NCBI GenBank assembly: GCA_903901225.1
Contig: CAIUQE010000001.1
Span: 2,563-66,562 of the forward strand
Reading direction: 5' to 3'
Source: Candidatus Omnitrophota bacterium
GTDB lineage: Bacteria > Omnitrophota > Gorgyraeia > Zapsychrales > Fredricksoniimonadaceae
Length of the DNA stretch: 64,000 nucleotides
Under the pieces are notes generated by a model, which was not told the origin of the DNA, did not search any database, and saw nothing but the letters and a program-made list of their open reading frames with translations. Both the position numbers and the translations under genes were made by a program. Each line of letters opens with the position of its first letter. Within the stretch, counting starts at the first letter, position 1. Shown here one piece after another: positions 18,316-40,374 of the stretch.

Positions 18316-18316
18316 A

Positions 18317-19225
18317 TCAATTGTCCCTTTCCTTCAAGAACACCGCCGGATTCCCGACATAAACGCCATGGCTTTTAAGGTCCTTCAAGGCCACGGCGCC
18401 GATGCCCAGGGTCACGTGATCCCCGATCTTCACGGAGTCCCTGACACTGGCATTGGGCGCGATCAAGCAATTCTTCCCGATCTCGACCCCACGGCTGATA
18501 ATGGCGCCTGCCGTGATCATGGCCCCGGCCCGGATCACGCTGTTCGCGCCGATCTGGACCAGGTCATCGATCTTGACCATGTCCTCAATGACCGTCTCAT
18601 GGATGGCCGAACTTTCAATGCTGGAATTTGACCCTATCCACACATGATCCCCTATGATGATCTTTCCGACATGCGGAAAGTGCACCTGCCGCCCTTGAAC
18701 ATCCACCTCAAAATCATAACCTGTGCTGCCGACGGTGGAGTTATGCTTGATCAGGCATTTTTCACCGACCTGAACACGCCCCGTGATGACAACATTGTTC
18801 AATATCCTCGTCCCGTCCCCAATGGTCACATCCGGGCCGATCACAACGTTCTCACCGACCGCGACACCCTGCCCGAGCCGGGCACTCTTGTCGATCATGG
18901 CTGAAGGCGCTATTTTCACCTCGTCAAATTCGATGAAGAACTCATTGAGCACGTCGATAAATTTGATGTGCGGCTCTTTCACGACCAGGAACGAAATGCT
19001 ATCGGTCTGGACAACTGGAAGCCGGGAGGCCAGGACCAGGACATCTTTATGCGACTGAAAACCATGTTCATCCAGGCCGCTTTCATCAGCGCGCACGAAA
19101 GTATTATCGATCATCCGCCGCCATGATGAAGGGCCCCGCACAATAAAATCACGGCCAATAAGCTCAGCCTCAAGGAAACCGGCTATCTCGGAAGCGAATA
19201 TGTCGGCTGTTTTCATTTTATACAT
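18317..19225 (-). CDS. Left-handed beta-helix (hexapeptide-repeat) N-acyltransferase, LpxD-like
   Basis: Repeated [LIV]-G-x-x-x-x hexapeptides across the C-terminal two-thirds (IGDHVWIGSNSSI, IGANSVIRAGAMI, ...). N-terminal region resembles the LpxD uridine-binding domain. Confidence 0.65.
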   Translation of the reverse strand: MYKMKTADIFASEIAGFLEAELIGRDFIVRGPSSWRRMIDNTFVRADESGLDEHGFQSHKDVLVLASRLPVVQTDSISFLVVKEPHIKFIDVLNEFFIEFDEVKIAPSAMIDKSARLGQGVAVGENVVIGPDVTIGDGTRILNNVVITGRVQVGEKCLIKHNSTVGSTGYDFEVDVQGRQVHFPHVGKIIIGDHVWIGSNSSIESSAIHETVIEDMVKIDDLVQIGANSVIRAGAMITAGAIISRGVEIGKNCLIAPNASVRDSVKIGDHVTLGIGAVALKDLKSHGVYVGNPAVFLKERDN

Positions 19226-20364: not shown

Positions 20365-21692
20365 AGCGACTTCCTCCAGACAGAAACATTGCCATAATCA
20401 TCATTCGTGGCCAGGCCGACGGCCTCAACAGCCTCAAGTCGAATAGTATCATCATCGAACGTGTAACTCCACGATGTCCCCCCATGGTAATCGAGGTTCT
20501 CGTGAAAATAATGTCCGTTCTTCGTCTTAAAACAAAAGTATGGCTGCGGCCCCCAGCAGGACTTGTCGGTCTTAACCATCAAGCAGCCATTCTCCAGGCT
20601 GGCATCGAACTGCAATGGCGCCTCGCGCTTCAAGGCAAGCGTTTGCCGGAGGGCCTCGACAGCGCCGGAATTCCTGATCTTCACCTGGGGATATTTCTTC
20701 TGAACCTTGCGCACCAAATTATAAAAGCCATCAATATACGGCCTCATCTCCCGCTCATCATGATCCGTGACGGCCATAAGCGTTTGAAGGCCATTATCCG
20801 CTCTCTGAAACGCTTTCTCGACTTCATGCTCATCGATCGTCCTGAGCCTGGAATTCAGATTCAGGCATCTGGCAATATACCGTTTCATATGGCCCTTGAT
20901 CTGATAATCGTAGAAATCAGGATGGTAGGTCTCCCATTCCGATGTGGCGCGCCGCCAATCACCATAACGCCCGGCTTTAACATCGTTCTGAAGGTCCGTG
21001 ATGCGGTGCTTATCCGCCGCCACTCCCTGATTTCCAAAATCAAAAGGGATCCACTGCTCCAGGAAAAGATTGATATCCGGACGCTCGCAATGAAAACCTG
21101 GCCGATAGGCACACGGAAACCACCCATGGTCGATCACCCGGCGGCTCAATACCTGCAAATGCTCATTCGTGTGTGAGAAATTATTGGATGACTTATTGCA
21201 CTCGCGAAAAAAAGGCACGGGATGGAAATGCCAATGGAGCTCATCCCGGGAAGAGGCCGCTGAAGCCAGTTTCTTTCTATAATAATCAAAGACCACATGA
21301 TACCCCAGCGCCCGCTGCCGCGGGTTGGTGAGATAGCCGACATGATCGGCAATGAACCAGTTAAAAACATAACCATTGCCAAAGTCATCCACATAACGGC
21401 GGCGCCACGTGTCAGATACGATCTCCCCGATCATCTCATCAACCATGCCCCAATTAATGTTATAACTGAGCCTGGTTTTTGACACAAATTGCATGACCAA
21501 AGGACGGACAGCTGCGGGGACACCTTCTCCCCGGCGAAGTTTCTCAAGATTCTCGTCAGATGGCGGAAGGTCTATCCCGAAGATCGTCTTCACCACCTCA
21601 AATGTGGCTGACAAAGACTCATACAAAGGCCCTTCGGTGTCCACACAATGCACAAGATGGACGATCTTATCGCTCATGGCACAGCCCTTCAC
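20361..21692 (-). CDS. Hypothetical protein (possible carbohydrate-active hydrolase or deacetylase-like)
   Basis: N-terminal VHLVHCVDTEGP is reminiscent of metal-dependent polysaccharide deacetylase or GH57-type N-termini. No confident family assignment. Confidence 0.2.
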   Translation of the reverse strand: MKGCAMSDKIVHLVHCVDTEGPLYESLSATFEVVKTIFGIDLPPSDENLEKLRRGEGVPAAVRPLVMQFVSKTRLSYNINWGMVDEMIGEIVSDTWRRRYVDDFGNGYVFNWFIADHVGYLTNPRQRALGYHVVFDYYRKKLASAASSRDELHWHFHPVPFFRECNKSSNNFSHTNEHLQVLSRRVIDHGWFPCAYRPGFHCERPDINLFLEQWIPFDFGNQGVAADKHRITDLQNDVKAGRYGDWRRATSEWETYHPDFYDYQIKGHMKRYIARCLNLNSRLRTIDEHEVEKAFQRADNGLQTLMAVTDHDEREMRPYIDGFYNLVRKVQKKYPQVKIRNSGAVEALRQTLALKREAPLQFDASLENGCLMVKTDKSCWGPQPYFCFKTKNGHYFHENLDYHGGTSWSYTFDDDTIRLEAVEAVGLATNDDYGNVSVWRKSL

Positions 21693-22407
21693 TGTTCAAA
21701 TGCTCTTTCCAGATGGCCTCAATGGCCAAAAAATCAAATTTATCGTCAACCTCGTAATTCTGCCAGCGCTGCAGATAATACGGCATTGTCCTGGCCGGGT
21801 AGAACGTCCGGGCACTTTTCAAACTCTCCACCTTTGACAAATAAATGACCCCGTAAGGGATGAACGCTTCCTGGGGAATATCCTGCATCCGCGCAAATTT
21901 GACATCCGTTTCAATAAAAGGCCGGATCAACCCGTCCTCCCCGACACGTTTGGCCATCAATGGATGCTCAAGGACGACTTTGCCGAAACTGACGACGCTT
22001 TCAGCCTTGTCCGCATGATCGGCCAACAACGCAATAGCATTATCAATATCACCATTAGCCCGCAACGGCGATGTCGGCTCCATCAACCCCAGAAGATCAA
22101 ACGCCTCACCCTTGGCCATGAGCGCATCAAGCGTGTGGGCGACCGTGTCCATGACCGTCGCCTCATCCGCCGCCAATGCCGGAGGGCGCATCATGACACT
22201 CACGCCAGGATACTGTTGCGCCACGGCCGCGATCTGCGCGCTGTCTGTGCTGACAACGATCCGGTCCAAAGACGTACTGGCCAGCGCCTGTTCAATGGTC
22301 CAGGCAATAAGCGGCTTGCCCAGCAATGGCTTGATGTTCTTTCCAGGGAGGCGCTTGCTGCCGCCCCTGGCGGGGATCAACCCCAGGATCTTTTTACCGT
22401 TATACAT
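21667..22407 (-). CDS. Acylneuraminate cytidylyltransferase (CMP-nonulosonate synthetase; NeuA/LegF-like)
   Basis: N-terminus KKILGLIPARGGSKRLPGKNIKPLLGKPLIAWTIEQA is the classical CMP-NeuAc synthetase signature. About 246 aa. Confidence 0.8.
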   Translation of the reverse strand: MYNGKKILGLIPARGGSKRLPGKNIKPLLGKPLIAWTIEQALASTSLDRIVVSTDSAQIAAVAQQYPGVSVMMRPPALAADEATVMDTVAHTLDALMAKGEAFDLLGLMEPTSPLRANGDIDNAIALLADHADKAESVVSFGKVVLEHPLMAKRVGEDGLIRPFIETDVKFARMQDIPQEAFIPYGVIYLSKVESLKSARTFYPARTMPYYLQRWQNYEVDDKFDFLAIEAIWKEHLNSEGLCHER

Positions 22408-27381: not shown

Positions 27382-29442
27382 TCAGGTCTCCTCTACTTTG
27401 TAAAAGAAATCACGGATATCCATGAATTCACTCATTTTCCGCAAGGTAACATTCTTGTTCTTGTGCGCGTATTGCTGCAACAATAATTCCAACGCCTGTT
27501 TCTGCTTCTCGGGAAGGTAAAAACGGAACTTGATGCCTTGGGGGCGATGGAACCGCTCAAGGTCCGTCTTATACTTGTCATTCTGCCATCCGAGGATATC
27601 ATAATGGAACGTAAGGACCTTTTCCCTGGAGACCTCTGCCCAATCAGAGGTCAGGTCAAGGATCGCGGCAAAATGGAACTTAAAAAGATCCTCGATAACG
27701 GCCCGCTTGGACTGGCAAAGGGGCGAATAATTAATTGCCGTCGCGAATAAGAACTCATTAAAACTGGCCATGGCTTCGATCAGGGTCTTAAATATATACT
27801 TCCCGTTCATCTTGCCGTGCTTGCCATCTTCCAGGTCTTTGAATTTCTCTGGCCGGCTGTAATGGGCCTTAAGATCATCCACCGAATCAAACCACTCAGC
27901 CCTGGCTTCCTGCTTGAATTCACTGAAGATCTCCTGGATCCTCTGATAGCTGGCATTTGTCTGGGCCTCATCGATCAATCTCAGGATGTAATCCAGAGGG
28001 CTGATGCCAATCGACCTTAAATATTTCAACACACCGTAATAGAACCTGTAATTCCACAGGAACTGGATGAGCCAATGGACCGGTCGAAAATACAGGATCT
28101 CATCCTCGGTCATGTCGGATGTCGCCCGAATACCTTCTTCAGCCTCGAAAGACATGCGGCCTTCATACGTGCCGAATGAATTATCAACAAGCCTGAATTT
28201 CGTCGTGCAATTGAACTTCCCATTTTCCTTCAGGAGCGACATCTCCGTCCCTTCCAGCAAAAGGGCGTTATAGCAGATGATGTAAGAAACATCCCAGTCG
28301 AAAAGGCTGCGCAGCGTCCTGATATGACTTTCTTTTGTTTCGCCAGGAAGCCCAAGGATGATCTCCGTGCCGGACATGCCGCCCATGGCATTGACCCTGT
28401 CCATGATGTCCTTGAATACGGAGATCTTGATATTGGCCCGGTTCACGTTCATGAGCACCTGCTCATCCAGCGACTGCAATGACACAATGATGTTCGAGCT
28501 TTTCAGGATCCGGGCGATCTCAAAAAGCTTCGGTTGATTCTTGGCCCAGTTCGTATTGAACTTCTTCAAGTTCTGCGTTTCATCGGACAACTTCGCGATA
28601 TATTCCGCGATCTCCATGTCACGTTCAACAACGCCGAAATTGGCATCCGCCAGGTTCAGGATGTTCGTGTTCTTGACTTTTGTGGCGATATAGCGCAATT
28701 CCTCCTTCACGCGGTCCATGCTGAAAAGATCCAGCCGGTTGTGCGAAGAAAATCCCTGCGCGCAAAATGTGCATGTGTACGGGCAGCCTCTGTTGGTCTC
28801 GACGATAGGGATAAGCTTGGTCTCGAAAAACTCATCCAGCAAGCCGGTCAGATAGGGTGAAGGGATGCTGTCAAGATCCTTGATCCTGGGAATATTATTA
28901 CCCACAACAGCGGCCCTGTTCCTCACATCATAAAAAATGACCCCGTCAATGGGCGCTGATCGCAACTGATCGATCTGCAGGCCTCTTGCCTCCACAGCCT
29001 TCAATAATTCAATAAAGGGTTTTTCCCCCTGATAGGGCACATAAAAATCCACATGCGGATGAGTTTCAAAGAACCGCGCATACCCGCGCGGAGAGTAATC
29101 AATGTTCGGCCCGCCAAAGACCACGATCGCCTGGGGATTGATCTCTTTAACGCGGGCCGATATCTTCTTATTGATATCCACGTTCCAGGTATAATTACTG
29201 AACCCCACAATATCAGCAGGATCCTTCTTGTACGCTGAAATGAACTGATCCGGATATTTGAACAACCTGACATCAACTTCCTGCGGCGCATATTTCCTGG
29301 CATAGCCGGCGATATAGGAAATATTCAGCGGGAACATATAGGTCCCCACGCCCAGATAGTTATGCACCAGATCACACAAATTTATCTTTAACGTTTTACG
29401 CACAGGCTTCACAGCTCCTTCGATCCCTACATCCCCAGGCAT
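27382..29442 (-). CDS. Cobalamin(B12)-binding radical SAM enzyme with long C-terminal extension
   Basis: N-terminal B12-binding-like domain, CxxxCxxC motif GCPYTCTFC, 686 aa. The C-terminal about 250 aa have no recognised motif. Confidence 0.75.
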   Translation of the reverse strand: MPGDVGIEGAVKPVRKTLKINLCDLVHNYLGVGTYMFPLNISYIAGYARKYAPQEVDVRLFKYPDQFISAYKKDPADIVGFSNYTWNVDINKKISARVKEINPQAIVVFGGPNIDYSPRGYARFFETHPHVDFYVPYQGEKPFIELLKAVEARGLQIDQLRSAPIDGVIFYDVRNRAAVVGNNIPRIKDLDSIPSPYLTGLLDEFFETKLIPIVETNRGCPYTCTFCAQGFSSHNRLDLFSMDRVKEELRYIATKVKNTNILNLADANFGVVERDMEIAEYIAKLSDETQNLKKFNTNWAKNQPKLFEIARILKSSNIIVSLQSLDEQVLMNVNRANIKISVFKDIMDRVNAMGGMSGTEIILGLPGETKESHIRTLRSLFDWDVSYIICYNALLLEGTEMSLLKENGKFNCTTKFRLVDNSFGTYEGRMSFEAEEGIRATSDMTEDEILYFRPVHWLIQFLWNYRFYYGVLKYLRSIGISPLDYILRLIDEAQTNASYQRIQEIFSEFKQEARAEWFDSVDDLKAHYSRPEKFKDLEDGKHGKMNGKYIFKTLIEAMASFNEFLFATAINYSPLCQSKRAVIEDLFKFHFAAILDLTSDWAEVSREKVLTFHYDILGWQNDKYKTDLERFHRPQGIKFRFYLPEKQKQALELLLQQYAHKNKNVTLRKMSEFMDIRDFFYKVEET

Positions 29443-30506
29443 TTGACCGTTTCACGGTATTTTTCCCACTGCCCGACATCCAGCCAGGCCTTTTCACTGA
29501 CAGGATAAACCCCGACCCTGCCATTATTATTTTTGACCAGCTTGATCAGGTCGGTGAAATCCAATGAGGCCCCCTTGGGTATCATCTTAAGCACGGACCT
29601 CTCCAGGATATACATCCCTGTATTCACCAACAGGTCATATTCCGGCTTCTCATCGATATCATTGAGCCTGCCATTGCCGTCTATTTTCAGGACACCGTAC
29701 GGGATCTTGAAATGATTCATGGAACCCACAACCGTTATGTCACACTTATTTTTTTTATGAAAACCATAAATATCCTGATAATCAGCTTTAATGATAATGT
29801 CGCAATTTGAAACAAAAAATGTCTTTGGCATGTCCTTATGGATCAGTTTGAGCCCGCCGGCAGTTCCCAGCGCTTCTTTCTCATGGACATACCCGATCTT
29901 GTAAGGCAGCGAAATATTGTCAAAATACGACCTTATCATTTCACTTTTATAACCAAGGACAAGATGGAATGTGCGGCATCCACTGGCATAAAAATTATCC
30001 ATGATGATCTCAACGACGGGCTTTTCACCGATGGGCAAAAGCGGTTTTGGCAAAATGCGGGTGAACGGATCCAGGCGGGCGCCCTTGCCTCCGGCCATGA
30101 TCACAACAGGCAGGTCGATCTTGGGCATCTCCATCCTCTGTCCGTGCCCGAAGATGACCTCCCAAAGGTGAACATCGACCAACCGACGAGCCCCGTCAAC
30201 AACGGGAATAGACTCAAGTTTCTGATCGATCATCATCTCCTTGATGGCATCGATCAGACAGGTGTCGCTCACAAAAACAGGTTTCTTGTTATAAACCTTA
30301 TCGATACTGTCTTTAAGGCTCTTGTCCGCGAGTATCCATTTACGGATATCACCATCCGTAAGAGCCCCCAGCAGCTTACGGTCATCATCAACAACAAATA
30401 ATATTTTCTCGGCGCCCTCCCCCATTTGCTTCATGGCATCACGGATGGACACGCCTTTTTTTATCAACAGCTTTTTGATGTTCTCTTTCACGTGAGGTCT
30501 CCCCAA
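29427..30506 (-). CDS. CBS-domain-containing sugar-phosphate nucleotidyltransferase (PtmE-like)
   Basis: N-terminal tandem CBS pair (…GALTDGDIRKWIL…, …ESIPVVDGARRLVDV…) followed by the nucleotidyltransferase core VIMAGGKGARLDPFTRILPKPLLPIGEKP. Confidence 0.75.
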   Translation of the reverse strand: MGRPHVKENIKKLLIKKGVSIRDAMKQMGEGAEKILFVVDDDRKLLGALTDGDIRKWILADKSLKDSIDKVYNKKPVFVSDTCLIDAIKEMMIDQKLESIPVVDGARRLVDVHLWEVIFGHGQRMEMPKIDLPVVIMAGGKGARLDPFTRILPKPLLPIGEKPVVEIIMDNFYASGCRTFHLVLGYKSEMIRSYFDNISLPYKIGYVHEKEALGTAGGLKLIHKDMPKTFFVSNCDIIIKADYQDIYGFHKKNKCDITVVGSMNHFKIPYGVLKIDGNGRLNDIDEKPEYDLLVNTGMYILERSVLKMIPKGASLDFTDLIKLVKNNNGRVGVYPVSEKAWLDVGQWEKYRETVKCLGM

Positions 30507-32170
30507 AAGATAACTTCGTCCTCTTTCTTGTCCCGGGACAACACGCGCCCCAAAGCCTTCGCCGCTTCCGCGGGCTGGATCCCGTTCCCGGGCCGTTTGA
30601 TAGAAAACATGTCTTCCCGCAAACGCGCCCCTTTCTTAAGGTCCCTGGCCGCCACAAGGCTTTTCCTGGCGACCTTCATGATGGCGATCTCGCTCCTGAC
30701 AGGAACTTTCTCCGGGATACCTAAACTGGTTTCGACATGGCGGATACCCTCGACCAGGCGCGCCAGCTCATCCGGCTCGACCGACGCTTTATGGTCAGGG
30801 CCCGGCATATTCCTGTCCAGGGTAAAATGTTTTTCAATGACACAGCACTCAAGTGCCGCCGCGGCAATGGCAATATCTGTCCCTGTCGTATGGTCCGAAT
30901 ACCCGACGGGCAACCCCGTCCTGGCGCGCAAAGATCGGATCACCCGTAAGTTCACTTCATCGAACGGACAGGGATAATTTGTTGTGCAATGCAGCAGGGT
31001 CAACGGCGGATACGGTGCCTTGCCCGTCACCCGCTGGGTACTGCCGATCACCTCAACAGCCTGCTCCACTTCCGCCAACGTCGACATCCCTGTGGAAAGG
31101 ATGATCGGCTTGTTCCGGGAAGCCACATGCCTGAGAAAAGGGATATCCGTGATATTGCCCGATGATATCTTGTACAATGGAACAAGGCCATCCAGAAGAT
31201 CAACGCTTTCCATATCAAATGGCGTCGAAAGGAAAATGATCTTTTTCCCGTCGCAATATTTCTTGAGCTCCATAAAATCCCGCCCTGACAGTTCAAGCTT
31301 TTTCAGCATTTCTAGCTGGCTTTCCTTCCGTCCGGGCATATTCTTTTTTTGATAAGAAGCTTTTTCGGCCATATTGGAAACGAGCTTCTCTGCCTTGAAT
31401 GTCTGGAACTTGACCGCGTCCACGCGTGCCGCCACAGCCGCGTCGATCAGCTTTTTTGCTGTTTCAAGGCTGCCGTTATGGTTCACCCCCGCCTCGGCGA
31501 TAATGAACACCCTGCTCTTTTTTGATAAAGGAACCCTGACACGGCAGGGATTTCCAAAAGCCTTACGGCCTGAGGGAATATCATCCGTCACAACACTCCC
31601 GGAACCGATAAGGCAGTCTTTGCCTATTTTCTTATACTGATTGACCACCGACCTCGCGCCGATATGGGTGCCCTCTCCGACAACAACCCCGCCGCTGAGC
31701 ACAGCCCCGGGCGCGATGTGCGCAAAATCGCCAATGGCACAATCGTGATCGACGGATGCTGAAGTATTAATGATGACATTCCGGCCTGTGACGACGCCGG
31801 GATTAATGGTGGCCGACGGGGCCACGAAGGTCCCATCACCCAGGACAACACCCGCCGCTACGGTAGCACCGGGATGGACCACCGCGGGCAGATGAAACCC
31901 GATCTTCCTGATCTTCGCATCGATCGCCCTGCGGGCGTCACAATGGCCGACAGAACCTACGCCGATAAAAGCGTAACGGACACCTTTCTTGTACACTTTG
32001 GCAAGTTCATCATCTGCGCCCAAAACATTGATACCGGCGACGTTGCTCCCGGCCTTCAGGGCATTATCAACGATCCCCGCGATATCGAACGCCGTGGCGC
32101 ACCGGATGGCATCGATCACCACCCTGGCATGCCCGCCACCGCCTATAAGCACGATCTTCTCTTTACGCAT
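30488..32170 (-). CDS. Fusion protein: NeuD/PglD-family hexapeptide acyltransferase (N-terminal) plus NeuB-family nonulosonate synthase (C-terminal)
   Basis: Residues about 1-210 begin IVLIGGGGHARVVID and carry LbH repeats (NeuD/PglD/WeeI-type sugar acetyltransferase). Residues about 215-560 begin RVFIIAEAGVNHNGSLETAKKLIDAAVAARVDAVKFQTF (NeuB TIM barrel) with a C-terminal SAF-like segment. Confidence 0.8.
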   Translation of the reverse strand: MRKEKIVLIGGGGHARVVIDAIRCATAFDIAGIVDNALKAGSNVAGINVLGADDELAKVYKKGVRYAFIGVGSVGHCDARRAIDAKIRKIGFHLPAVVHPGATVAAGVVLGDGTFVAPSATINPGVVTGRNVIINTSASVDHDCAIGDFAHIAPGAVLSGGVVVGEGTHIGARSVVNQYKKIGKDCLIGSGSVVTDDIPSGRKAFGNPCRVRVPLSKKSRVFIIAEAGVNHNGSLETAKKLIDAAVAARVDAVKFQTFKAEKLVSNMAEKASYQKKNMPGRKESQLEMLKKLELSGRDFMELKKYCDGKKIIFLSTPFDMESVDLLDGLVPLYKISSGNITDIPFLRHVASRNKPIILSTGMSTLAEVEQAVEVIGSTQRVTGKAPYPPLTLLHCTTNYPCPFDEVNLRVIRSLRARTGLPVGYSDHTTGTDIAIAAAALECCVIEKHFTLDRNMPGPDHKASVEPDELARLVEGIRHVETSLGIPEKVPVRSEIAIMKVARKSLVAARDLKKGARLREDMFSIKRPGNGIQPAEAAKALGRVLSRDKKEDEVIFWGDLT

Positions 32171-33323
32171 CGAAGAATTCCTTCTTCAAGAAATCCGCGC
32201 CGATCCGGATGTGCTTCAACTTTTCCTTGATCTTCATGGACGCTCCGCCGCAACCGTATGGATTCTTCATCCCCCGCAACGACTTTCTGAACGCGCCGCT
32301 CAAACCACGCTGAATGGCTTTCGTTATGTCAGCCGCCGCACTGCCGCAATCAATAACATTCCGCGCCTTCACCCGCCCCCGCTGGCGATCGCCGATATTG
32401 ACGACCGGCAATTTAAACGATGGCGCTTCCACAATACCGCTCGAAGAATTACCGATCATGATGTCGGCGCGTTTCAATAAAGAAAGATATCTTATGTGCC
32501 CCAGGGATGTGAACGCCCTGGCACGCCCGCTATTTTTTTTAACATAGCTTTTAATCTTGTTCACAATAACACTGTGCCCGGTGTCCGCGTTAGGCATCGT
32601 AAAAACAATATCTCCATCAAACTTATCCAAAGCCAAAAACACACTCTCCATTTGCTTGCCGGCGGTGTTATGCTCCAGCGTAACAGGATGGTACGTAACA
32701 GTGGCCAGCGGCCGGTCGCCGGAAATTCCGAGAACCCGCGCTAATTCTCCTTTTGATAGAAATTTAAGATGCTTCATGTTATCCATCCCGGGCGCTCCGT
32801 ACATGAATACCCGCTCCGGCGATTCCCCCATCCTGATGATCCTTTGGGCATACAGCTTTGTCGCCGGAAAATGAATGCCGGCCATTTTAGTAATGGCATG
32901 CCGGAAAGCCTCGTCGAGGGCGCCACCCGTTACCTCACCGCCGTGGATATGCGCCAGGGGGATGCGCGCAACATAAGCGGCGACAGCCGCCGCGAAGATC
33001 TCATACCGGTCTCCCAGAACAACGACGACATCCGGCTTAAGTCTTTTATAAACACCACTGAACCCGTCAATGCCGCGGCTGATCGCCCGTGTCATCGGCA
33101 TTTCCTTGCCTGCCGGGGAAAGAACATCCACTTTACCGCTGACCACAAAACCGTCTTGCCTGATCACATCGACAGTAGATCCGAAAGCGGAAGAAAGATG
33201 CGATCCTGTCACGACCACTTGCAGGGCCATCCCCGGATCATCCTTGACGGCCTTTAAAAGCCAGTAAAGATGCCCGTATTCGGCGCGCGATCCCGTCACA
33301 ATGCATATCTTTCGCTGGGGCAT
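32163..33323 (-). CDS. neuC: UDP-N-acetylglucosamine 2-epimerase, hydrolysing type (NeuC/LegG-like)
   Basis: N-terminus KICIVTGSRAEYGHLYWLLKA and downstream HIHGGE motif typical of NeuC-type hydrolysing 2-epimerases. 386 aa. Confidence 0.8.
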   Translation of the reverse strand: MPQRKICIVTGSRAEYGHLYWLLKAVKDDPGMALQVVVTGSHLSSAFGSTVDVIRQDGFVVSGKVDVLSPAGKEMPMTRAISRGIDGFSGVYKRLKPDVVVVLGDRYEIFAAAVAAYVARIPLAHIHGGEVTGGALDEAFRHAITKMAGIHFPATKLYAQRIIRMGESPERVFMYGAPGMDNMKHLKFLSKGELARVLGISGDRPLATVTYHPVTLEHNTAGKQMESVFLALDKFDGDIVFTMPNADTGHSVIVNKIKSYVKKNSGRARAFTSLGHIRYLSLLKRADIMIGNSSSGIVEAPSFKLPVVNIGDRQRGRVKARNVIDCGSAAADITKAIQRGLSGAFRKSLRGMKNPYGCGGASMKIKEKLKHIRIGADFLKKEFFDA

Positions 33324-33324
33324 G

Positions 33325-34437
33325 CTAAGAAGACCCCTTTTTCATAAGTCCTTCAATAGCATCACAGACTTCTTCAATGATCTTTTCCGTATTCAATGTC
33401 GAACTTGGAAGGCAAAGCCCCCGGTCATACAAGCGGTTGGCGTTGTCACAGCTTCCCCTCTGGAACGTGCCAGCGTACTGGAATGTCTGCATGGGCTTAA
33501 AGATCCTGCGTGAAGGAATACCCATTTTCTTCAAACCTTCATGCACCCTGATAACTTCAGCATTATCCTTGAATATGACCGCCGTAAACCACCAGGACGG
33601 ATCCGCGCCGGGATAAATCTCCTGCATGCCGCATATGCCGCGCGCCCGGAGTTTTGCCTCATAGATACGATGAAAAGATTTCTTAAGCTCGATGAACCCG
33701 TTAAGGCGGCTGAGCTGTGCCAGTCCCAGCGCCGCGTTCAAATTCGGCATGCGGTAATTGAACCCGACTTCCTGAAACCCTTCCTGGCCTTCACGCGGAT
33801 TAGCCTGATTGACCAGATAAACAGCCCTATCCAAAACCGTGGATGAACGCGCTACCATCATCCCGCCACCGCCAGTGGTCATCAATTTGTTCCCGTTAAA
33901 ACTGAAACAGCCGATATCGCCGAACATGCCAAGATGCCGGCCTGACAGAAAAGCGCTCAAGGACTCCGTCGCGTCCTCAACAACGAAAATACCTGCGGCG
34001 GCGGCAATGGCCGTAATATGTTCCATATCGCTGGCATTCCCGTAAAGATGCACCGGTATGACAGCCCTGGTCCGTGGCGTGATCGCCGCCTTGAACGCGG
34101 CAGGACAAAGGCACCATGTTTTCGGATCAATGTCAACAATAACGGGCGTAGCCCGGACATACATCACCGCGTGCAGCGTGGCGGCAAACGTCGTCGCAGG
34201 AACAATAACCTCATCACCCTCTCCGACTCCCAGGATGTGCAGGGCCATATGGAGCGCCGCCGTGCCGCTTTGAACCGCGACCGCGCGCGGAGCGCCGACA
34301 ACCCCCGCGAAGGCCTTCTCAAATTCCCCGACCAAAGGGCCGAACGTCGACACATAGCCGCTGTCGATCGCCGCGCAGACCTTTTCTTTTTCAACCGGCC
34401 CGATATCCGGGGCATCCAGGTGTATGGTCTTTGTCAT
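33325..34437 (-). CDS. DegT/DnrJ/EryC1/StrS-family PLP-dependent sugar aminotransferase (PseC/LegC-like)
   Basis: Family-typical core (…DIGPVEKEKVCAAIDSGYVS…, …FSFNGNKLMTTGGGGM… with the PLP-lysine region). The ORF track extends to 34611, but the likely start is the ATG at 34437, abutting the upstream dehydratase stop. Confidence 0.8.
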   Translation of the reverse strand: MTKTIHLDAPDIGPVEKEKVCAAIDSGYVSTFGPLVGEFEKAFAGVVGAPRAVAVQSGTAALHMALHILGVGEGDEVIVPATTFAATLHAVMYVRATPVIVDIDPKTWCLCPAAFKAAITPRTRAVIPVHLYGNASDMEHITAIAAAAGIFVVEDATESLSAFLSGRHLGMFGDIGCFSFNGNKLMTTGGGGMMVARSSTVLDRAVYLVNQANPREGQEGFQEVGFNYRMPNLNAALGLAQLSRLNGFIELKKSFHRIYEAKLRARGICGMQEIYPGADPSWWFTAVIFKDNAEVIRVHEGLKKMGIPSRRIFKPMQTFQYAGTFQRGSCDNANRLYDRGLCLPSSTLNTEKIIEEVCDAIEGLMKKGSS

Positions 34438-34438
34438 A

Positions 34439-35473
34439 TCAGATATTCTTATACTGCCGCGCGTCAGCGTCGGCAAAAACGCCCTCTTCGATCGACGCCT
34501 TGACCTCCCTGATCCCGTCAGGGACGCGTTTGGAAATACGAAAACCCAGGACTTCGCGTATTTTCTTGAACGCAACACGATAGTCGCGGGGGTCCTGGGA
34601 CCTTTGCACATACTTGACCTTCAAGGCAGGAATGAACTTGCGGATCTCGTCCACGAGCATTTGTTTCTGGTAATTCTCGTCGGTGTCGCCGACATTGAAG
34701 ACATTATACGCGACCTTGGCGGCATCCGCCTCGATCGACAGGATGATCGCCTGGGCAAAATCATACACATGGCAGTACGGGCGCCAGAACTGCTCGCCAA
34801 ACACTTCCAATTCGCGGCCAAGGGTGAACTCGCGGGTGAATTCATTGACCGTCAGGTCAAAGCGCATGCGCGGCGATATGCCATAAACCGTCGAAAAACG
34901 CAGGATGACCGGACTGAAACCGGCAGGACGGTCCTTGTCATTCAAAATATGCTGTTCAAATGCCACCTTGGTCTCGGCGTAAAGTGAAACCGGAGATAAC
35001 GCTGAATTTTCATCAACATAGCCGGCGCCATCTTCCATTTTGCCGTAATTGCTGCACGTCGATGAAAAAATAAATTTCTTACAGCCCGCCTTCTTTGCCC
35101 TCGCGTACAGATCACGCGCACCCTCCCCGTTCACTTTACGCGCCAGGTCAGGCTGTTTGGCGCAGGCAGGATCTCCCACAATAGCCGCCAAATGCACAAT
35201 AGCCTCAGGTTTAAAATCAGCAAGAACCCGGTCAATATCTCCGGCAACGGTCACATCGCCTTTGGTGAATGAGAACAGGCTGTCGTGCCAGTGGGCCAGC
35301 AGGCTCTCCCCGCCGAAACTCAAATTATCAAAAACCCGCACCCTATAGCCGGCTTTTAATAAAGCTCCCACAAGGACCGATCCGATATATCCCGCGCCAC
35401 CCGTGACCAAAATTGATTTCTTGTTTGACATAAATAGCTCCCCGCGATGTCCCATTAAACAAATCTTTTTCAA
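34439..35473 (-). CDS. NAD-dependent epimerase/dehydratase (extended SDR). Candidate nucleotide-sugar 4,6-dehydratase of the legionaminic/bacillosamine type (LegB/PglF-core-like).
   Basis: ILVTGGAGYIGS Rossmann motif and YxxxK (YAETK). About 330 aa. Precedes the DegT aminotransferase as in Leg/Pgl pathways. A possible internal start lies at 35431. Confidence 0.7.
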   Translation of the reverse strand: MKKICLMGHRGELFMSNKKSILVTGGAGYIGSVLVGALLKAGYRVRVFDNLSFGGESLLAHWHDSLFSFTKGDVTVAGDIDRVLADFKPEAIVHLAAIVGDPACAKQPDLARKVNGEGARDLYARAKKAGCKKFIFSSTCSNYGKMEDGAGYVDENSALSPVSLYAETKVAFEQHILNDKDRPAGFSPVILRFSTVYGISPRMRFDLTVNEFTREFTLGRELEVFGEQFWRPYCHVYDFAQAIILSIEADAAKVAYNVFNVGDTDENYQKQMLVDEIRKFIPALKVKYVQRSQDPRDYRVAFKKIREVLGFRISKRVPDGIREVKASIEEGVFADADARQYKNI

Positions 35474-35501
35474 AACCCTTCAACAGTGCCTCCGAACCCC
35501 A

Positions 35502-36233
35502 TTATTTCCTTATCGTCCAAAAATCCGCCGCCAGTGTCTCCAAATACGCAAACGGCATCGTAAAGTACCCTTTCATCCCCCATGCTTCGCCCCAGGAATT
35601 ACGCACCAGGAAACGCTTGTCTTTCTGGTCATACCCGACCGCCAGCACCGCGTGCCCACCGAGCATCCGCTCGGTCTTCTTCGGCATCGGGACTTTGCCG
35701 GTCTTGGCCACCTGCGGGGCCTGAAGGCTTTCATAGACCGAAAATCCAAACACGAACGGGAAACCTTCGGACAAACACGACAGCATATCCGCCAGCGTCA
35801 CGATCCTGTGATATGAAACGATCCGGTGTTTCAGACCTTCCTGATAACAGCGCGCGAGGGGCTTGGCCGCGAACTTTTCGATCGCATACGGCCAGGCCTT
35901 CTCCGAACAAACGCCGTTGGCCGCCAATGTTTTGATCCCGTTACGCAACGAGGCCCCCGAATCCGCCGCCACACTGCCCTGAAGCACCCGTTCATTATAA
36001 TAAATGAAAAGCCGGCTGGCATCGGTATAAGCCCCGTCCGCCTCTTTGTCCAGGAATTCAATATTCCCGGCCAACGCGTTGGCCGTGCAGCTGCCCAACT
36101 GGCCCTGGTCTTCGACGGCGGAACAATGGGCGCGAAGGTCAACCGCCACCGGCACCCGCACTTTTGGCCTGATGGCACTGTAATAAAAGTCCCTGCTGTC
36201 CGGTATATCCGGGATCCAACCATATTTCTTCAT
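35502..36233 (-). CDS. Papain-like (C1 family) cysteine peptidase homolog, no signal peptide
   Basis: Gln-oxyanion and Cys nucleophile region QGQLGSCTANA (compare papain QGxCGSCWAF), His region GGHAVLAVGYD and Asn/Trp region NSWGEAWGMKGYF. All three catalytic-triad blocks are present in the canonical order. No N-terminal hydrophobic signal. Confidence 0.65.
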   Translation of the reverse strand: MKKYGWIPDIPDSRDFYYSAIRPKVRVPVAVDLRAHCSAVEDQGQLGSCTANALAGNIEFLDKEADGAYTDASRLFIYYNERVLQGSVAADSGASLRNGIKTLAANGVCSEKAWPYAIEKFAAKPLARCYQEGLKHRIVSYHRIVTLADMLSCLSEGFPFVFGFSVYESLQAPQVAKTGKVPMPKKTERMLGGHAVLAVGYDQKDKRFLVRNSWGEAWGMKGYFTMPFAYLETLAADFWTIRK

Positions 36234-37276
36234 GCCACACTCCCTTCTGCAAGCATCCTGCCATCACCACCAACATTCCCCTTGGCTCTGTCTGCCTCAA
36301 GTTCGTAAAACTCATTGAGTTTCTGCTGTAATATCTCCTTCCGGGGCAAACATGTCTTGTACTCGGCCACCAGCGCGGGAGAAAGCGTACGGCTTAACGC
36401 GTATTCGACAACTTCGGAATCTTTAGACTTGCACAAAAGAATACCAATGCTCGGTTTTTCATGCGCTTTGCGAACATCACGATCCAGGGCTTCGAGATAG
36501 AATGAAAGCTGGCCCATATATCCTGGTTTAAAGTCATCGATCTTCAATTCAAATGCCACCAGGCACGAAAGCCCGCGATGAAAAAACAATAGGTCCACAA
36601 AGAAATCTTGTCCGCCTACTTGAAGTCGATACTCCTCACCTGCAAAACAAAAATCACGGCCTAATTCCATAAGAAATTTCTTCAAATTTGAAACAAGCCC
36701 GTTCTTCAGGTCTTTTTCAGAATGATTATCAGGTAAATTCAGGAAATCCAACAAATAAATATCCTTAAACTCTTCCTGAGCATCAGGGAATAAAAATGCG
36801 GCCGGTGGTGATACTTTTGCCGGAAGAAGCACTTTACGTTCAAACAAACACCCATCGATCTGTCGTTCCAGTTCCCTCTTGGACAAACGATCCTTGATCG
36901 CCAGACGTATATAAAATTCCCGTTCTTCTGACAGTTTACATTTATTCAAAACGATCAAATGATGCGCCCAGGGTAATTGTCTCACCAACGGTGAGACTTT
37001 TGCATCATGCCGGTAAGCCTCATATAACTGCCTCATCCTGAACAGGTTGGGACGGGTAAATCCTTTTAAATCAGGGTGATCCTTCGCAATATGATGCGCA
37101 AGATTGTCAATAACCCCTTCCCCCCAGGAGGCAGATTCAACCTTTTGGCTTATATATTGCCCCACCTGCCAGTATAAATCTATCAATACAGTATTGACCG
37201 CTTGGTACGCTTTATGGCGAGCCCCGCGGATCAAATTCACCACTTCACTGAAAGACTGTTCAAGAACTTCGCTCAC
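36230..37276 (-). CDS. YhcG/DUF1016-family PDDEXK nuclease homolog
   Basis: N-terminal …VNTVLIDLYWQVGQYI…WGEGVIDNLAHHI…GFTRPNLFRMRQLYEAY… pattern and C-terminal PD-(D/E)xK-like …FELKIDDFKPGYMGQLSFYL…IGILLC… block characteristic of DUF1016. 4-bp overlap with the downstream peptidase gene. Confidence 0.7.
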   Translation of the reverse strand: MSEVLEQSFSEVVNLIRGARHKAYQAVNTVLIDLYWQVGQYISQKVESASWGEGVIDNLAHHIAKDHPDLKGFTRPNLFRMRQLYEAYRHDAKVSPLVRQLPWAHHLIVLNKCKLSEEREFYIRLAIKDRLSKRELERQIDGCLFERKVLLPAKVSPPAAFLFPDAQEEFKDIYLLDFLNLPDNHSEKDLKNGLVSNLKKFLMELGRDFCFAGEEYRLQVGGQDFFVDLLFFHRGLSCLVAFELKIDDFKPGYMGQLSFYLEALDRDVRKAHEKPSIGILLCKSKDSEVVEYALSRTLSPALVAEYKTCLPRKEILQQKLNEFYELEADRAKGNVGGDGRMLAEGSVA

Positions 37277-37523
37277 TCAAAGGCTCCGATTTCCTTATAG
37301 TCTAAGAAGCTGTGGTTCCAACGCAATTATCGTGACAGTGTCGCGACAATCTCTTGTCCATACTCCGCGCGCCGCCTCGATGAGCGAACGAACGTCATTA
37401 AGCACCTTGGTATCTAGGGTTACAACCGCAACTGTCTTCTTTACAGACTTTGCCTTTACCATAACTGACTCACCATCCAGAAATCCACGCCGTCCGATAT
37501 GTCCGCGACCAATCCATATTTTT

Positions 37524-38102
37524 TCATGCCACACTCCCTTGTGCCAACAACCTGTCTTCTCCAAGACTTTGTGTCAGAAAGGCTTCATCCCTGGCAAGTT
37601 CATCGATCACCTGCACAGCGCGAACACCTTCAGGCACGATCACCCCTTCACGGCATATCAGGATGATCCCGTCGACCGGAATATCCCGCACTTCTTCGAT
37701 GTGCCATAATTCATGCTGGCCGAAAAATTCTTCCATCAAAACCATCTCGATAAGGCCCGCCAGGTCCGAAGCCCCCAGCACATAAAATTTGCGCACACCC
37801 GTAACATGCAGCCGTGCGAGCAACCCTTCAATATTCTTTTTAACTAACCCGATGGAGTTCAACGTCTTAAGCGTGTATTTGACGGATTTTTGCATCTTTT
37901 CAGCAAAACCCTTGGGCGTCAACAGGTATTCAACCTTCTTTTTATTGAGCTGTTTGATGCGGATATGGCCTTTGGTCAAAAGCCGGTGGATGAGCATGTT
38001 GGTCATGCCCAGCGAAAGGTTCATCTGGCGGGAAATTTCGCGCTGGCTGGCGCCCAATTCCCCGCCGATGATATTGATCAATTCAAATTCCCGTTCATCC
38101 AT
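37524..38102 (-). CDS. Winged-helix (MarR-like, possibly EPS-associated) transcriptional regulator with C-terminal extension
   Basis: N-terminal about 95 aa, LINIIGGELGASQREISRQMNLSLGMTNMLIHRLLTKGHI…, has the wHTH layout of MarR-type regulators. A perfect palindrome lies 24 bp upstream of its start codon. Confidence 0.55.
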   Translation of the reverse strand: MDEREFELINIIGGELGASQREISRQMNLSLGMTNMLIHRLLTKGHIRIKQLNKKKVEYLLTPKGFAEKMQKSVKYTLKTLNSIGLVKKNIEGLLARLHVTGVRKFYVLGASDLAGLIEMVLMEEFFGQHELWHIEEVRDIPVDGIILICREGVIVPEGVRAVQVIDELARDEAFLTQSLGEDRLLAQGSVA

Positions 38103-38125
38103 GATAAAGGCCCAATTTCCTCAAC

Positions 38126-38142
38126 TGTTCAAATAATGAACA
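38126..38142. promoter_or_regulatory. Perfect palindrome TGTTCA-AATAA-TGAACA; candidate operator upstream of the wHTH regulator gene
   Basis: Read directly in the sequence 24 bp upstream of the minus-strand ATG at 38100-38102, in the AT-rich intergenic region between the regulator and galE. Confidence 0.3.
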
Positions 38143-38185
38143 ATTATAACAAATCAAAGCCTTTTGTCAAAAAGTATTGTGCCAA

Positions 38186-39205
38186 TTACGCTTTGGAACG
38201 AGAGTGAAAAGAATTTGCGGCCTTTTCCTGCGCCATTTCCCAGGCCCAGGCTGAAGCAATGATCTCCTGAAGGTCGCGCGAAGGCTTCCATCCCAGAAGT
38301 TTACGCGCTTTGGCAAACGAAGCCACGACCTTAACGCAATCACCCGGACGGCGGGGGCCGTAAATGACCGACACCGGACGCCCAATGACTTTCTCCGTTG
38401 TCTTAATGACCTCTTTAACGGAAAATCCGCGGCCATTGCCAAGATTGATCATTTCATTTTTGACGCGCCCCGTGAACAGCTTGAGCAACGCTAACAGATG
38501 GGCATCGCACAGGTCCAGCACATGGATATAGTCGCGGACGCAACTGCCATCAGGCGTGTCATAATCAGTCCCGAAGACCGTAAGCGCCTGCTGGAGCAGT
38601 ATCGAGCGCATGACATTGGGGATAAGGTGCGTCGGTTTCTCCATCTTGATGCCGATATCGCCCGAAGGATGGGCACCGGCCACGTTGAAATACCGCAGGG
38701 CAATGAAATCCACCTTACCGGCGCGCGCCATATCGCCAAGGATCTGTTCGGCGATGACCTTGGTGGCACCATAAGGATTTGCCACTTTCAAAGGCTCATC
38801 CTCAAGGATGGGGTTCTTCAACGGTTCGCCATAAACACACGCCGAAGAAGAAAAAACGATGCGGCGCACACCCGCCTCCTCCATGGCCCTGAGCAGATTG
38901 AGCGTGCCTGTCACATTATTGTCATAATACTTCAAAGGATCGCTCACGGATTCCGGGACAACGATCACGGCCGCGTAATGAATGACAGCGTCGATGCTGA
39001 ATTTCCGGAAAACCTTTCGGATATCATCGAGCCGGCGCAGGTCACCCTTGACCAGCGGCACGCCCGCCGGGATGAATTCCCTGTGCCCGGTCGAAAGATT
39101 ATCGAATATAACAGGCGCGTAACCCCCGTCAAGAAGAAGGCGCGCCATATGGGAACCGATATAACCCGCCCCGCCCGTCACCAGGATCATCTTTTTTTTC
39201 ATCAA
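38186..39205 (-). CDS. galE: UDP-glucose 4-epimerase
   Basis: ILVTGGAGYIGSH N-terminus, YxxxK (YGATK), length 339 aa and overall GalE block order (…FIHVLDLCDAH…). Confidence 0.85.
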   Translation of the reverse strand: MMKKKMILVTGGAGYIGSHMARLLLDGGYAPVIFDNLSTGHREFIPAGVPLVKGDLRRLDDIRKVFRKFSIDAVIHYAAVIVVPESVSDPLKYYDNNVTGTLNLLRAMEEAGVRRIVFSSSACVYGEPLKNPILEDEPLKVANPYGATKVIAEQILGDMARAGKVDFIALRYFNVAGAHPSGDIGIKMEKPTHLIPNVMRSILLQQALTVFGTDYDTPDGSCVRDYIHVLDLCDAHLLALLKLFTGRVKNEMINLGNGRGFSVKEVIKTTEKVIGRPVSVIYGPRRPGDCVKVVASFAKARKLLGWKPSRDLQEIIASAWAWEMAQEKAANSFHSRSKA

Positions 39206-39234: not shown

Positions 39235-40374
39235 TCAAGTCAACGTTGCCGCCCAGCGGAAAACTTTCACGAGCCTCGGCAGGATAAGGGCAAGTATGCC
39301 ACCCCACATCAGCACGCGCAACCACAGCACCCTTGGCCTGCGGACAAGTTCCTCACAAAGCACAGCTATCGCCGCGCAACTGACACCCGCCAGGGCCATC
39401 ATGTAACGGTTCGACACTTCAAAAGCCGGGCTTGGGGTTGGAAATTTTTGATTCACCCAGAGATACCCGAGGAAAACGCCGTACCCGAGGATCGTGAGCC
39501 ATGCCCAGCCCAGGAAAAGCCAGACATTGGCACAAACTTTCTCACCACTGCGACGCGCCCAGACCCAAAGGAAAAAAGGGACGATCAGCAGGAACTGCAA
39601 CCGCCCTTCGGGTACCGCCGCCTTGACCAGATCCAGCGGCTGGCCATAGGAAGCAAAATAAAAATGATACGTCACCCTGTAAAGCTGATGATACCCGAAA
39701 CCAACGGCCAAAGGCAGGATGACCATGGCCAGCAACGGCCAAATCCGCCGATGGCCAGCAACCCATAAGACCGCCCCAGCCGACGTTATCTGAATAACGC
39801 TCAAAGAGCTCGTGACCGCAAGGAACATATGCGCCATAGCGACAAAAACCCAGCCGCGCGCAAGATCCCCGGAACGCAATGCCCTTAATAAAACCACTGC
39901 CTGCAGCACACTGCCAAAGAACACCATCGCGTAAGGCCTGGCTTCGGCAATATACCCCCAGACCAGATAAGTGCCCAGCGCCGTCAGGAACGCCACCACA
40001 CCTGTGGTGATCGAATATGACCTCGCGAAAGCCCAAAAGCTGAGCGCCAACCCAAGCGACATGAACATGACAGGAAGGATACGCAGGATGATCCTCGCCT
40101 CGAAGGGCTGTTGGTGCCACAGGTCACCGGCCGTATAATGAAGAACGGAACAAACACTCTTTTGCAACGCGTAAAACAGAGGTGAATTATTGCCTTCCTG
40201 CACACCGCCGCGCCAGATGGCGGACATGCTCAACCCGTCGACATTGGCCACCTGGGAATATATCTCGTCATTCCACAAAGGCTTCCTCACGGCCACCGAG
40301 AATCCCGACGCAAGCCCGAACAGGAAAATGGCAGCGGCCACACCATGAATGACGAAAGCGTGATATTTCTTCAT
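39235..40374 (-). CDS. Polytopic membrane glycosyltransferase, GT39/ArnT/PMT-like (tentative)
   Basis: About 10 hydrophobic segments. Conserved acidic DE in the first periplasmic loop (PLWNDEIYSQ), as in ArnT/PMT-type lipid-linked-sugar transferases. Sits next to a GT2 polyprenol-phosphate glycosyltransferase. The ORF-track start at 40407 is probably over-extended; the ATG at 40374 is more likely. Confidence 0.5.
   Translation of the reverse strand: MKKYHAFVIHGVAAAIFLFGLASGFSVAVRKPLWNDEIYSQVANVDGLSMSAIWRGGVQEGNNSPLFYALQKSVCSVLHYTAGDLWHQQPFEARIILRILPVMFMSLGLALSFWAFARSYSITTGVVAFLTALGTYLVWGYIAEARPYAMVFFGSVLQAVVLLRALRSGDLARGWVFVAMAHMFLAVTSSLSVIQITSAGAVLWVAGHRRIWPLLAMVILPLAVGFGYHQLYRVTYHFYFASYGQPLDLVKAAVPEGRLQFLLIVPFFLWVWARRSGEKVCANVWLFLGWAWLTILGYGVFLGYLWVNQKFPTPSPAFEVSNRYMMALAGVSCAAIAVLCEELVRRPRVLWLRVLMWGGILALILPRLVKVFRWAATLT

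Follow-up and report, generated by a model that had tools for sequence, protein, structure and literature searches.

The window analysed here, a stretch of 64,000 nucleotides of contig CAIUQE010000001.1 from an uncultured Candidatus Omnitrophota bacterium, carries on its minus strand a single gene that joins a sugar acetyltransferase of the PglD/NeuD/PerB type in frame to a synthase of the NeuB family. Judging from its sequence and surroundings, this fused gene probably encodes a real, bifunctional LegH-LegI protein, and hence unites steps three and five of a legionaminic acid (Leg) pathway whose published order is LegB, LegC, LegH, LegG, LegI and LegF (PMC6137143, PMC5378307). It is a new architectural arrangement of two well-known enzyme families and brings no new reaction, fold, mechanism or pathway logic. 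A full-text literature search found neither a NeuD-NeuB nor a LegH-LegI fusion described, but just a Leptospira fusion of NeuB to a phosphatase and a two-hybrid interaction between NeuD and NeuB; in databases the fusion is present yet unremarked, the JGI name for relatives being 'N,N'-diacetyllegionaminate synthase'. The gene and its parts are the following:

30488..32170, minus strand: the whole fused gene, with an ATG start and 560 codons plus TGA, stop-free inside
31535..32170, minus strand: N-terminal PglD/NeuD/PerB-type acetyltransferase domain, residues 1-212, consisting of a PglD_N alpha/beta sub-domain and a left-handed beta-helix
31511..31534, minus strand: linker VPLSKKSR, 8 residues (213-220), with a predicted local distance difference test score (pLDDT) below 50 for residues 206-218
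30665..31510, minus strand: NeuB TIM-barrel domain, residues 221-502, with the motifs IAEAGVNHNG, VKFQ, YSDH and EKH
30491..30664, minus strand: SAF (antifreeze-like) C-terminal domain, residues 503-560, holding the KRPG arginine

The original prediction had described, naming no strand, a single open reading frame of 560 amino acids, joined near position 31530 and leading from a GGGGH-bearing acyltransferase into a complete NeuB TIM barrel and SAF domain, and this description agrees with the list of open reading frames, in which no stop interrupts the minus-strand frame, as well as with the position of the linker. In scans with hidden Markov models (HMMs), Pfam assigns PglD_N (PF17836) to residues 5-73, four copies of Hexapep (PF00132), NeuB (PF03102; E 4e-92, model positions 1-238 of 241) to residues 241-485 and SAF (PF08666) to residues 503-559. 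Among the NCBIfam models, TIGR03570 (NeuD/PglB/VioB) covers residues 5-210 from end to end (model positions 1-202 of 202) with 198.2 bits against a cut-off of 160.8, and TIGR03569 (NeuB_NnaB) likewise covers residues 221-554 (1-329 of 329) with 449.7 bits against 399.65, so that the N-terminal half passes as a sugar acetyltransferase and the C-terminal half as a synthase, whereas the PseI model TIGR03586 stays under its cut-off on the fused protein (256.5 bits, cut-off 340.25). Since two full-length models are matched in one frame, with E-values of 1e-59 and 5e-135, chance can be ruled out as the source of the two-domain reading frame. The assignment of the N-terminal half to the sugar acetyltransferases was consequently sound, but GGGGH (residues 10-14) lies in the PglD_N alpha/beta sub-domain and not, as had been proposed, in the hexapeptide beta-helix; the second motif of this domain, VDHDC at residues 140-144, includes the catalytic His142.

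Both halves look functional, to judge from aligned residues and predicted structure. Among 21 fused proteins GGGGH and His142/Asp143 of VDHDC are invariant or nearly so, and the same is true of E226, K254, K334, H427, E446/H448 and R526 in the NeuB half, which align to the motifs of Neisseria meningitidis NeuB (1xuu), whose catalytic and metal-binding residues we take to be Glu25, Lys53, Lys129, His215, Glu234/His236 and the SAF residue Arg314. Furthermore, His142 aligns to His141 of PerB, the residue mutated in 4eaa and 4eab, and its PglD counterpart is His125. An AlphaFold2 model of the chain has a mean pLDDT of 90, with both domains at about 85-98 (N-terminal domain 88-98) and values below 50 solely at residues 206-218 and 385-387, and a predicted TM-score (pTM) of 0.63; as modelled, two confident folds sit on a flexible tether, their mutual orientation is undefined and there is no confident inter-domain interface. 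Foldseek matches the N-terminal half to the acetyltransferase PglB-ATD (4m98) and to PerB (4ea7) with target TM-scores (TMt) of 0.90-0.91 and the C-terminal half to N. meningitidis NeuB (1xuu, TMt 0.84) and Campylobacter jejuni PseI (8h2c, TMt 0.88), and found no solved chain spanning both halves. The NeuB half also has a private loop, STQRVTGKAPYPP, at residues 377-389 (31004-31042), which contains an insertion of five residues that the other fused proteins lack.

The origin of the fusion can be read from relatives that are not fused. The closest relative of the N-terminal half is an unfused Omnitrophota acetyltransferase (P0124, 61% identity, whereas the best fused protein reaches 57% at most), and those of the C-terminal half are likewise unfused (P0021 and P0022, 65-67% identity, the best fused protein here reaching no more than 52%). 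On two contigs of Omnitrophota metagenome-assembled genomes (MAGs), L007 (GCA_043819655.1, JBDREP010000026.1) and L008 (GCA_043823005.1, JBDRBG010000015.1), acetyltransferase and neuB are separate genes that overlap by 1 and 8 nt, the acetyltransferase ending in ...GNPCRIRE or ...PCKVRGKANE before its stop and NeuB starting at an ATG of its own (MSKNIFIIAEAG or MNKEVFIIAEAG), whereas the window reads through (...GNPCRVRVPLSKKSRVFIIAEAG; GNPCRVR-VPLSKKSR-VFIIAEAG). The linker falls at the position of the stop/start overlap in these relatives, and by this comparison the window lost the stop and the ATG while nothing else changed. A GTG codon (Val221) with AAAAAGAGCAGG before it stands at the start of the NeuB half (31508-31535), where internal initiation may yield free NeuB beside the fusion; the weak hairpin seen at the junction (31549-31534) does not exceed what chance would give.

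By the sequences compared, the fusion has arisen repeatedly. On a neighbour-joining tree of 342 NeuB domains, for which the event count is approximate as the tree carries no support values, Fitch parsimony counts at least about 12 changes of the fused state; the window falls together with five NeuBs that are unfused (P0021-P0025, of which P0021 and P0024 are Omnitrophota according to NCBI), and the window, the pair P0062/P0246, a 9-member clade and several singletons form separate fused placements. Independent events are also supported by the different local order in the fused loci L003, L004 and L006, where dehydratase, aminotransferase and fusion follow each other and the epimerase is found elsewhere. 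About 28 other fused proteins, 33-76% identical to the query, were found: 21 of the 120 best clusters (at 90% identity) have the full-length PglD_N, Hexapep, NeuB and SAF architecture and are 44-52% identical to the query, an exhaustive search of 50%-identity representatives gave six more (P0244-P0248 and P0250), and an Omnitrophota MAG that serves as a GTDB species representative (L009) is fused as well. Many fusions in cultured species (such as Campylobacter concisus, Kaistella and Gracilibacillus) were hinted at by tblastn matches over residues 1-554, but a check of the reading frames showed all but one of the loci to have adjacent, separate genes.

The fusion is nonetheless uncommon, although easy to make. 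In a sample consisting of the best 80 loci from 185,579 species-representative genomes, neuD lies directly upstream of neuB in 35, a single one of which is fused, and the reverse order occurs in six. In several loci (L010, L012-L017 and L021, for example from Flavobacteriales, Desulfuromusa, Roseburia, Muribaculaceae and Campylobacter concisus) neuD and neuB share a frame and are parted by just one or more stop codons, so that, from the sequence, one point mutation would suffice for a fusion, as would read-through of the stop. NeuB is generally fusion-prone: the top 150 representatives include about 30 CTP_transf_3-NeuB proteins besides NeuB-CTP_transf_3, NeuB-Epimerase_2, methyltransferase-NeuB and CBS-NeuB. 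Examples of NeuB fusions to its various partners are P0249, P0257, P0262, P0263, P0268, P0279, P0291, P0295 and P0325; a NeuB-NeuB-cytidylyltransferase of 963 aa also occurs in public data, and a protein of 767 aa (P0016, on an ENA contig of 9,495 bp) is a triple fusion of Formyl_trans_N, PglD_N/Hexapep and NeuB with SAF, which echoes the formyltransferase-neuD-legI neighbourhood of Halorubrum (PMC6137143).

The genes from about 1.5 to 42.8 kb of the window all lie on the minus strand and make up an island for glycan biosynthesis, with MTHFR and GAPDH at its flanks; at 90% identity this GAPDH clusters with proteins of Candidatus Omnitrophota MAGs, in agreement with an Omnitrophota source. Those that bear on the role of the fusion are:

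34439..35473, minus strand: epimerase/dehydratase of the short-chain dehydrogenase/reductase (SDR) family that opens the Leg cassette in the place of LegB, with Epimerase and GDP_Man_Dehyd matches
33325..34437, minus strand: LegC-family DegT aminotransferase, TIGR04181 354.8 bits, below the cut-off of 420
32163..33323, minus strand: NeuC/LegG-type hydrolysing nucleoside-diphosphate (NDP) sugar 2-epimerase, upstream of the fusion, TIGR03568 456.5 bits against 235.9
29427..30491, minus strand: CBS and nucleotidyltransferase domains, PtmE-like sugar-1-phosphate nucleotidyltransferase, downstream of the fusion
21667..22407, minus strand: candidate CMP-nonulosonate synthetase (CTP_transf_3), PseF model 132.9 bits, below 205.7

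The fusion begins within neuC/legG, the gene upstream, its ATG and the neuC/legG stop lying in an overlap of 8 nt, and at its other end the TGA forms GTGA with the GTG at which the CBS-nucleotidyltransferase gene downstream starts; such overlapping boundaries indicate a translationally coupled operon. The aminotransferase probably starts with MTKTIHLD at 34437, although the listed reading frame extends to 34611. Between the PtmE-like gene and the candidate synthetase lie genes for a B12-radical-SAM (S-adenosylmethionine) methyltransferase, a SAM methyltransferase, an Fe-ADH, a class-III aminotransferase, a GFO/IDH/MocA oxidoreductase and an SDR. A scan of 29000-38500 for promoters and terminators gave counts at shuffle background (11 against 9.3 and 14 against 11.4). 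Directly upstream of the Leg cassette and on the same strand are found a papain-like C1 cysteine peptidase (35502-36233) and a YhcG/DUF1016 PD-(D/E)XK nuclease (36230-37276), an odd pair for a glycan operon, and a perfect sigma-70 consensus (38143-38170, minus strand; TTGACA, 16 nt, TG, TATAAT, 12 of 12 positions) lies upstream of the reading frame at 37524-38102.

This operon context points to legionaminic acid synthesis, since the published Leg route comprises LegB, LegC, LegH, LegG, LegI and LegF together with PtmE (PMC6137143, PMC5378307, PMC3438082), the last having a described role in Leg clusters (PMC3438082, PMC5378307), and a candidate gene is present for all seven roles, the LegG/NeuC enzyme and the NeuB half passing their cut-offs. 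No further PglD_N-type acetyltransferase was seen among the window reading frames scanned, which makes the N-terminal domain the sole LegH candidate of the cassette. The gene at 34439-35473 had been called LegB-like at the outset, and as regards operon position this is apt, an SDR likewise holding the LegB position in L007 and L008, but the LegB model itself reaches no more than 53.7 bits, far under its cut-off of 475. With both the SDR and the aminotransferase short of the LegB and LegC cut-offs, the Leg assignment rests on the gene set as a whole and not on single HMMs. These two shortfalls (53.7 against 475 and 354.8 against 420 bits) in fact weigh against our interpretation, as do the facts that the NeuB half passes a model for N-acetylneuraminate synthases, so that a product of the N-acetylneuraminic acid (Neu5Ac) type is compatible with the sequence, that an LpxD-like left-handed beta-helix acyltransferase (18317-19225) is also found in the island, that Escherichia coli K1 NeuD scores nearly as high against the N-terminal half as the N-acetyltransferases do, which leaves the call between N- and O-acetylation to two motifs and the genomic context, and that all exact copies of the gene are identical in DNA, so that the frame has no independent check from variation while the linker holds a run of six A.

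In the pathway that we propose, the SDR dehydratase and the LegC-family aminotransferase upstream would supply NDP-4-amino-4,6-dideoxy-N-acetylglucosamine, on the 4-amino group of which the N-terminal PglD/PerB-type domain would perform an acetyl-CoA-dependent N-acetylation. The separate NeuC/LegG enzyme would then remove the nucleotide and epimerise C2, whereupon the NeuB and SAF domains would condense phosphoenolpyruvate (PEP) with the resulting 2,4-diacetamido-2,4,6-trideoxy-hexose into a nonulosonate of the legionaminic acid type, to be activated with CMP by the cytidylyltransferase further down the island. As to its history, legH and legI would have been adjacent and translationally coupled in the ancestor, with overlapping stop and start, and once both codons were lost the two catalytic domains, each autonomous, would have been joined by a short flexible tether; the likely effect would be to fix their stoichiometry at 1:1 and to keep them in one place, which may stabilise a contact of the NeuD-NeuB type. 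The reading frame, the two domains with their catalytic motifs, the origin of the junction, the recurrence of the fusion and the operon context are shown by the data, while the substrate identities, Leg rather than Neu as the end product and any functional benefit are points that we infer.

It may be asked whether the N-terminal domain is an N-acetyltransferase at all. PglB-ATD and PerB lead its best solved relatives with about 110 bits, VioB and PglD come next (66-78 bits) and WeeI is also among them, all five being NDP-4-amino-sugar N-acetyltransferases. The E. coli K1 NeuD (from UTI89), which was the single NeuD sequence compared, reaches 92 bits at 32% identity and thereby falls between PerB/PglB and PglD/VioB, so that scores do not separate N- from O-ACETYLTRANSFERASE. 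The motifs however lean toward an N-acetyltransferase, in that GGGGH and VDHDC are common to the window, PerB and PglB, whereas K1 NeuD has GAGGF and IEHGN. These motifs and the upstream dehydratase and aminotransferase favour a LegH-type enzyme, and we accordingly regard an N-acetyltransferase of this type as the likely identity of the domain and a NeuD-type O-acetyltransferase as an unlikely one; the combination of an SDR and a LegC-family gene upstream of the acetyltransferase is also seen in L003, L004, L006, L007 and L008.

If the domain did O-acetylate the free nonulosonate that its partner synthase makes, the fusion would join consecutive activities and couple synthesis to O-acetylation, a coupling already put forward for the unfused E. 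coli K1 proteins. The TIGR03570 family, to which the domain belongs, includes NeuD, the resemblance to K1 NeuD is as given above, and the NeuB half lies above the NeuB_NnaB equivalog cut-off; moreover neuD and neuB are adjacent in E. coli K1 with an overlap of 4 nt, and the two-hybrid interaction of their products is interpreted in PMC2408645 as securing efficient acetylation during synthesis. We nonetheless find this reading rather improbable, since a dehydratase, an aminotransferase and a 2-epimerase precede the fusion and such a set needs an N-acetyltransferase, for which the scanned reading frames offer no other PglD_N-type gene. In addition, both motifs agree with PerB and PglB and not with NeuD, the top solved relatives are all NDP-sugar N-acetyltransferases, and the gene that comes after the fusion is of the PtmE-like kind typical of Leg clusters.

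Granted a LegH-LegI protein, the claim that its fusion implies channeling between N-acylation and PEP condensation does not follow. LegH and LegI are not consecutive, and the 2-epimerase LegG, encoded by the separate gene at 32163-33323, works between them, which makes direct channeling an unlikely effect; furthermore, the linker is predicted to be a flexible tether lacking a confident inter-domain interface, and a simpler origin exists in the loss of a stop and a start at an overlap of 1-8 nt, NeuB being fused to several other neighbours as well. An opportunistic fusion of coupled neighbours, tolerated as the domains fold autonomously, is the most economical reading.

A more elaborate proposal would be that the fusion is selected as an assembly, in which a trimeric acetyltransferase and a dimeric synthase build a higher-order (e.g. 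hexameric) scaffold that recruits LegG and channels intermediates, recurrence then being the mark of selection. PglD-family enzymes are indeed trimers and NeuB is a domain-swapped dimer, the many independent fusions (the NeuB tree requires about 12 changes of state or more) and the persistence of some fused clades over deep divergence (the 9-member clade and the P0062/P0246 pair) are what such selection would leave behind, and a physical interaction of NeuD and NeuB is reported for the unfused proteins (PMC2408645). The monomer model however shows no confident inter-domain interface (pTM 0.63, linker pLDDT below 50), fusion is rare even where the genes are adjacent (1 of 35 among the best 80 loci), LegG stays a separate protein, and the fusion of NeuB to CTP_transf_3, Epimerase_2, methyltransferase and CBS partners fits opportunistic fusion with any neighbour, and we therefore give a selected assembly little credence. 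Recurrent fusion of the NeuD/NeuB pair is nevertheless a classic comparative signature of interacting proteins, which makes an interaction the more interesting possibility: the fusions could, as a distinctly speculative proposition, be a 'Rosetta stone' record of a physical complex between NeuD/LegH and NeuB/LegI in general, non-consecutive though their steps are; in the fused form, the trimeric beta-helix and the dimeric barrel would then force a closed hexamer (a trimer of dimers) as the core of a Leg metabolon.

The original prediction of a genuine in-frame fusion of an acetyltransferase to a complete NeuB and SAF unit is supported by public data, in which the identical 560-aa protein occurs on 31 contigs (NCBI, Logan and ENA) and is indexed in 51 collection blocks. 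Two loci (L001 and L002), one on an ENA submitter scaffold and one from the Logan assembly of ERR4194646, show 100% identity with the window across 7,683 bp and attest to consistency across assemblers without independent population variation, and the junction is spanned too in another ENA/NCBI record by the representative of a fragment cluster (P0001, 389 aa). Separate genes merged by an indel error at the A6 run of the linker (31518-31523) could be imagined, as A5 or A7 would end the acetyltransferase frame 12-16 codons later, the GTG codon 221 could start NeuB and the DNA-identical public copies perhaps stem from the same reads, but such an artefact is unlikely, indeed we hold it to be very improbable, since the same product appears on the 31 contigs of ENA submitter, Logan and NCBI origin, the ancestral stop and ATG are both gone and not merely shifted, and the 28 other fused proteins with different linkers show the architecture to be viable. 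A homopolymer of six bases is besides not error-prone in short-read data.

The island also holds a second cassette (5604-12756) with the following genes:

7550-8605, minus strand: stand-alone NeuB, PseI model 340.2 bits against a cut-off of 340.25
8598-9374, minus strand: AP_endonuc_2/xylose-isomerase-like TIM barrel
9378-10244, minus strand: second cytidylyltransferase
11761-12756, minus strand: true PseB equivalog, 480.7 bits against 407.75

Its stand-alone NeuB and its PseB-like gene had both been noticed from the sequence beforehand and are confirmed by these scores, and a methyltransferase, a PylC-like ATP-grasp enzyme and a HAD hydrolase are found in the same cassette. The accompanying suggestion of two parallel nonulosonate branches is borne out insofar as two cassettes are present in the window, but no PseC, PseH or PseG was recognised in the second one, which makes that branch non-canonical or incomplete. 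Elsewhere in the island, B12-binding radical-SAM enzymes are encoded at 3336-4955, 10241-11761 and 27382-29442, with a fourth outside it (55221-56648); one of them is KedN5-like, of the C-methyltransferase type, and counterparts occur in other fused loci (L004, 12362-13825; L006, 2431-3933), which suggests an unusual C-methylation or other radical modification of the sugar. The LpxD-like acyltransferase mentioned above adjoins a radical-SAM protein and an AMP-binding (adenylating) enzyme, and this set (15876-19225) may add a non-acetyl N-acyl group to one of the sugars. Reading frames of 372-633 aa that lack a Pfam match lie at 12756-14657, 14659-15867, 19246-20364, 20361-21692 and 39235-40407; in related loci the equivalent place is taken by proteins of about 620 aa, and some of these match PF27878 (PFTS_polysacc) or PF27859 (LIC12162), two new Pfam families.

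If active as predicted, the protein would naturally supply, in a single chain, two of the six enzymes for CMP-legionaminic acid, a sugar that attracts interest in glycoengineering and as a mimic of sialic acid. The fusion furthermore adds comparative support to the old two-hybrid observation on NeuD and NeuB and illustrates cleanly how domain fusions grow out of stop and start codons that overlap in tight operons. It is of mild interest to glycobiology and as a Rosetta-stone hint.

Among the closest known systems is the Leg pathway of C. jejuni, where LegH (Cj1298) and LegI (Cj1327), compared here by published role, have the same two activities that are inferred for the fusion (Schoenhofen et al. 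2009, as summarised in PMC5378307, PMC6137143 and PMC3438082). The accessory set is similar too, comprising LegB- and LegC-like enzymes, LegG/NeuC, a PtmE-like CBS-nucleotidyltransferase and a CMP-synthetase, but in C. jejuni LegH and LegI are encoded by separate, non-adjacent genes while the window has one chain of 560 aa, and the dehydratase and aminotransferase of the window fall short of the curated LegB and LegC cut-offs. E. coli K1 offers the same two families in the order neuD-then-neuB, with a stop/start overlap of 4 nt in UTI89, and its NeuB is 45% and its NeuD 32% identical to the respective halves; its proteins are however separate, NeuD O-acetylates free sialic acid and the cluster is without a dehydratase or aminotransferase. 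That K1 NeuD and NeuB interact in a two-hybrid assay is stated in PMC2408645, which cites Daines and Silver 2000. The starting assumption that acetyltransferase and NeuB are separate in characterised pathways is correct for all those compared here, which are E. coli K1 and likewise C. jejuni, Halorubrum, Leptospira and Tannerella (PMC6137143, PMC3438082, PMC5378307).

The closest sequences found are those of L007 and L008, with 54-61% identity in the N-terminal and 61-67% in the C-terminal half, and these loci share with the window the SDR, DegT, Epimerase_2, acetyltransferase, NeuB and CBS-NTP-transferase genes in exactly this order and even the 8-nt overlap of the epimerase and acetyltransferase genes, differing in that the acetyltransferase stop and the NeuB ATG, through which the window reads straight, are present. 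Among other fusions, mammalian GNE joins an epimerase to a kinase. Leptospira has the NeuB-phosphatase fusion (PMC3438082), and a synthetase-esterase fusion in E. coli NeuA is cited in PMC6137143. Like the window, these proteins and the CTP_transf_3-NeuB and NeuB-Epimerase_2 fusions merge pathway neighbours in which each domain keeps its own fold; they differ in the partner domain and mostly join consecutive steps, unlike LegH and LegI.

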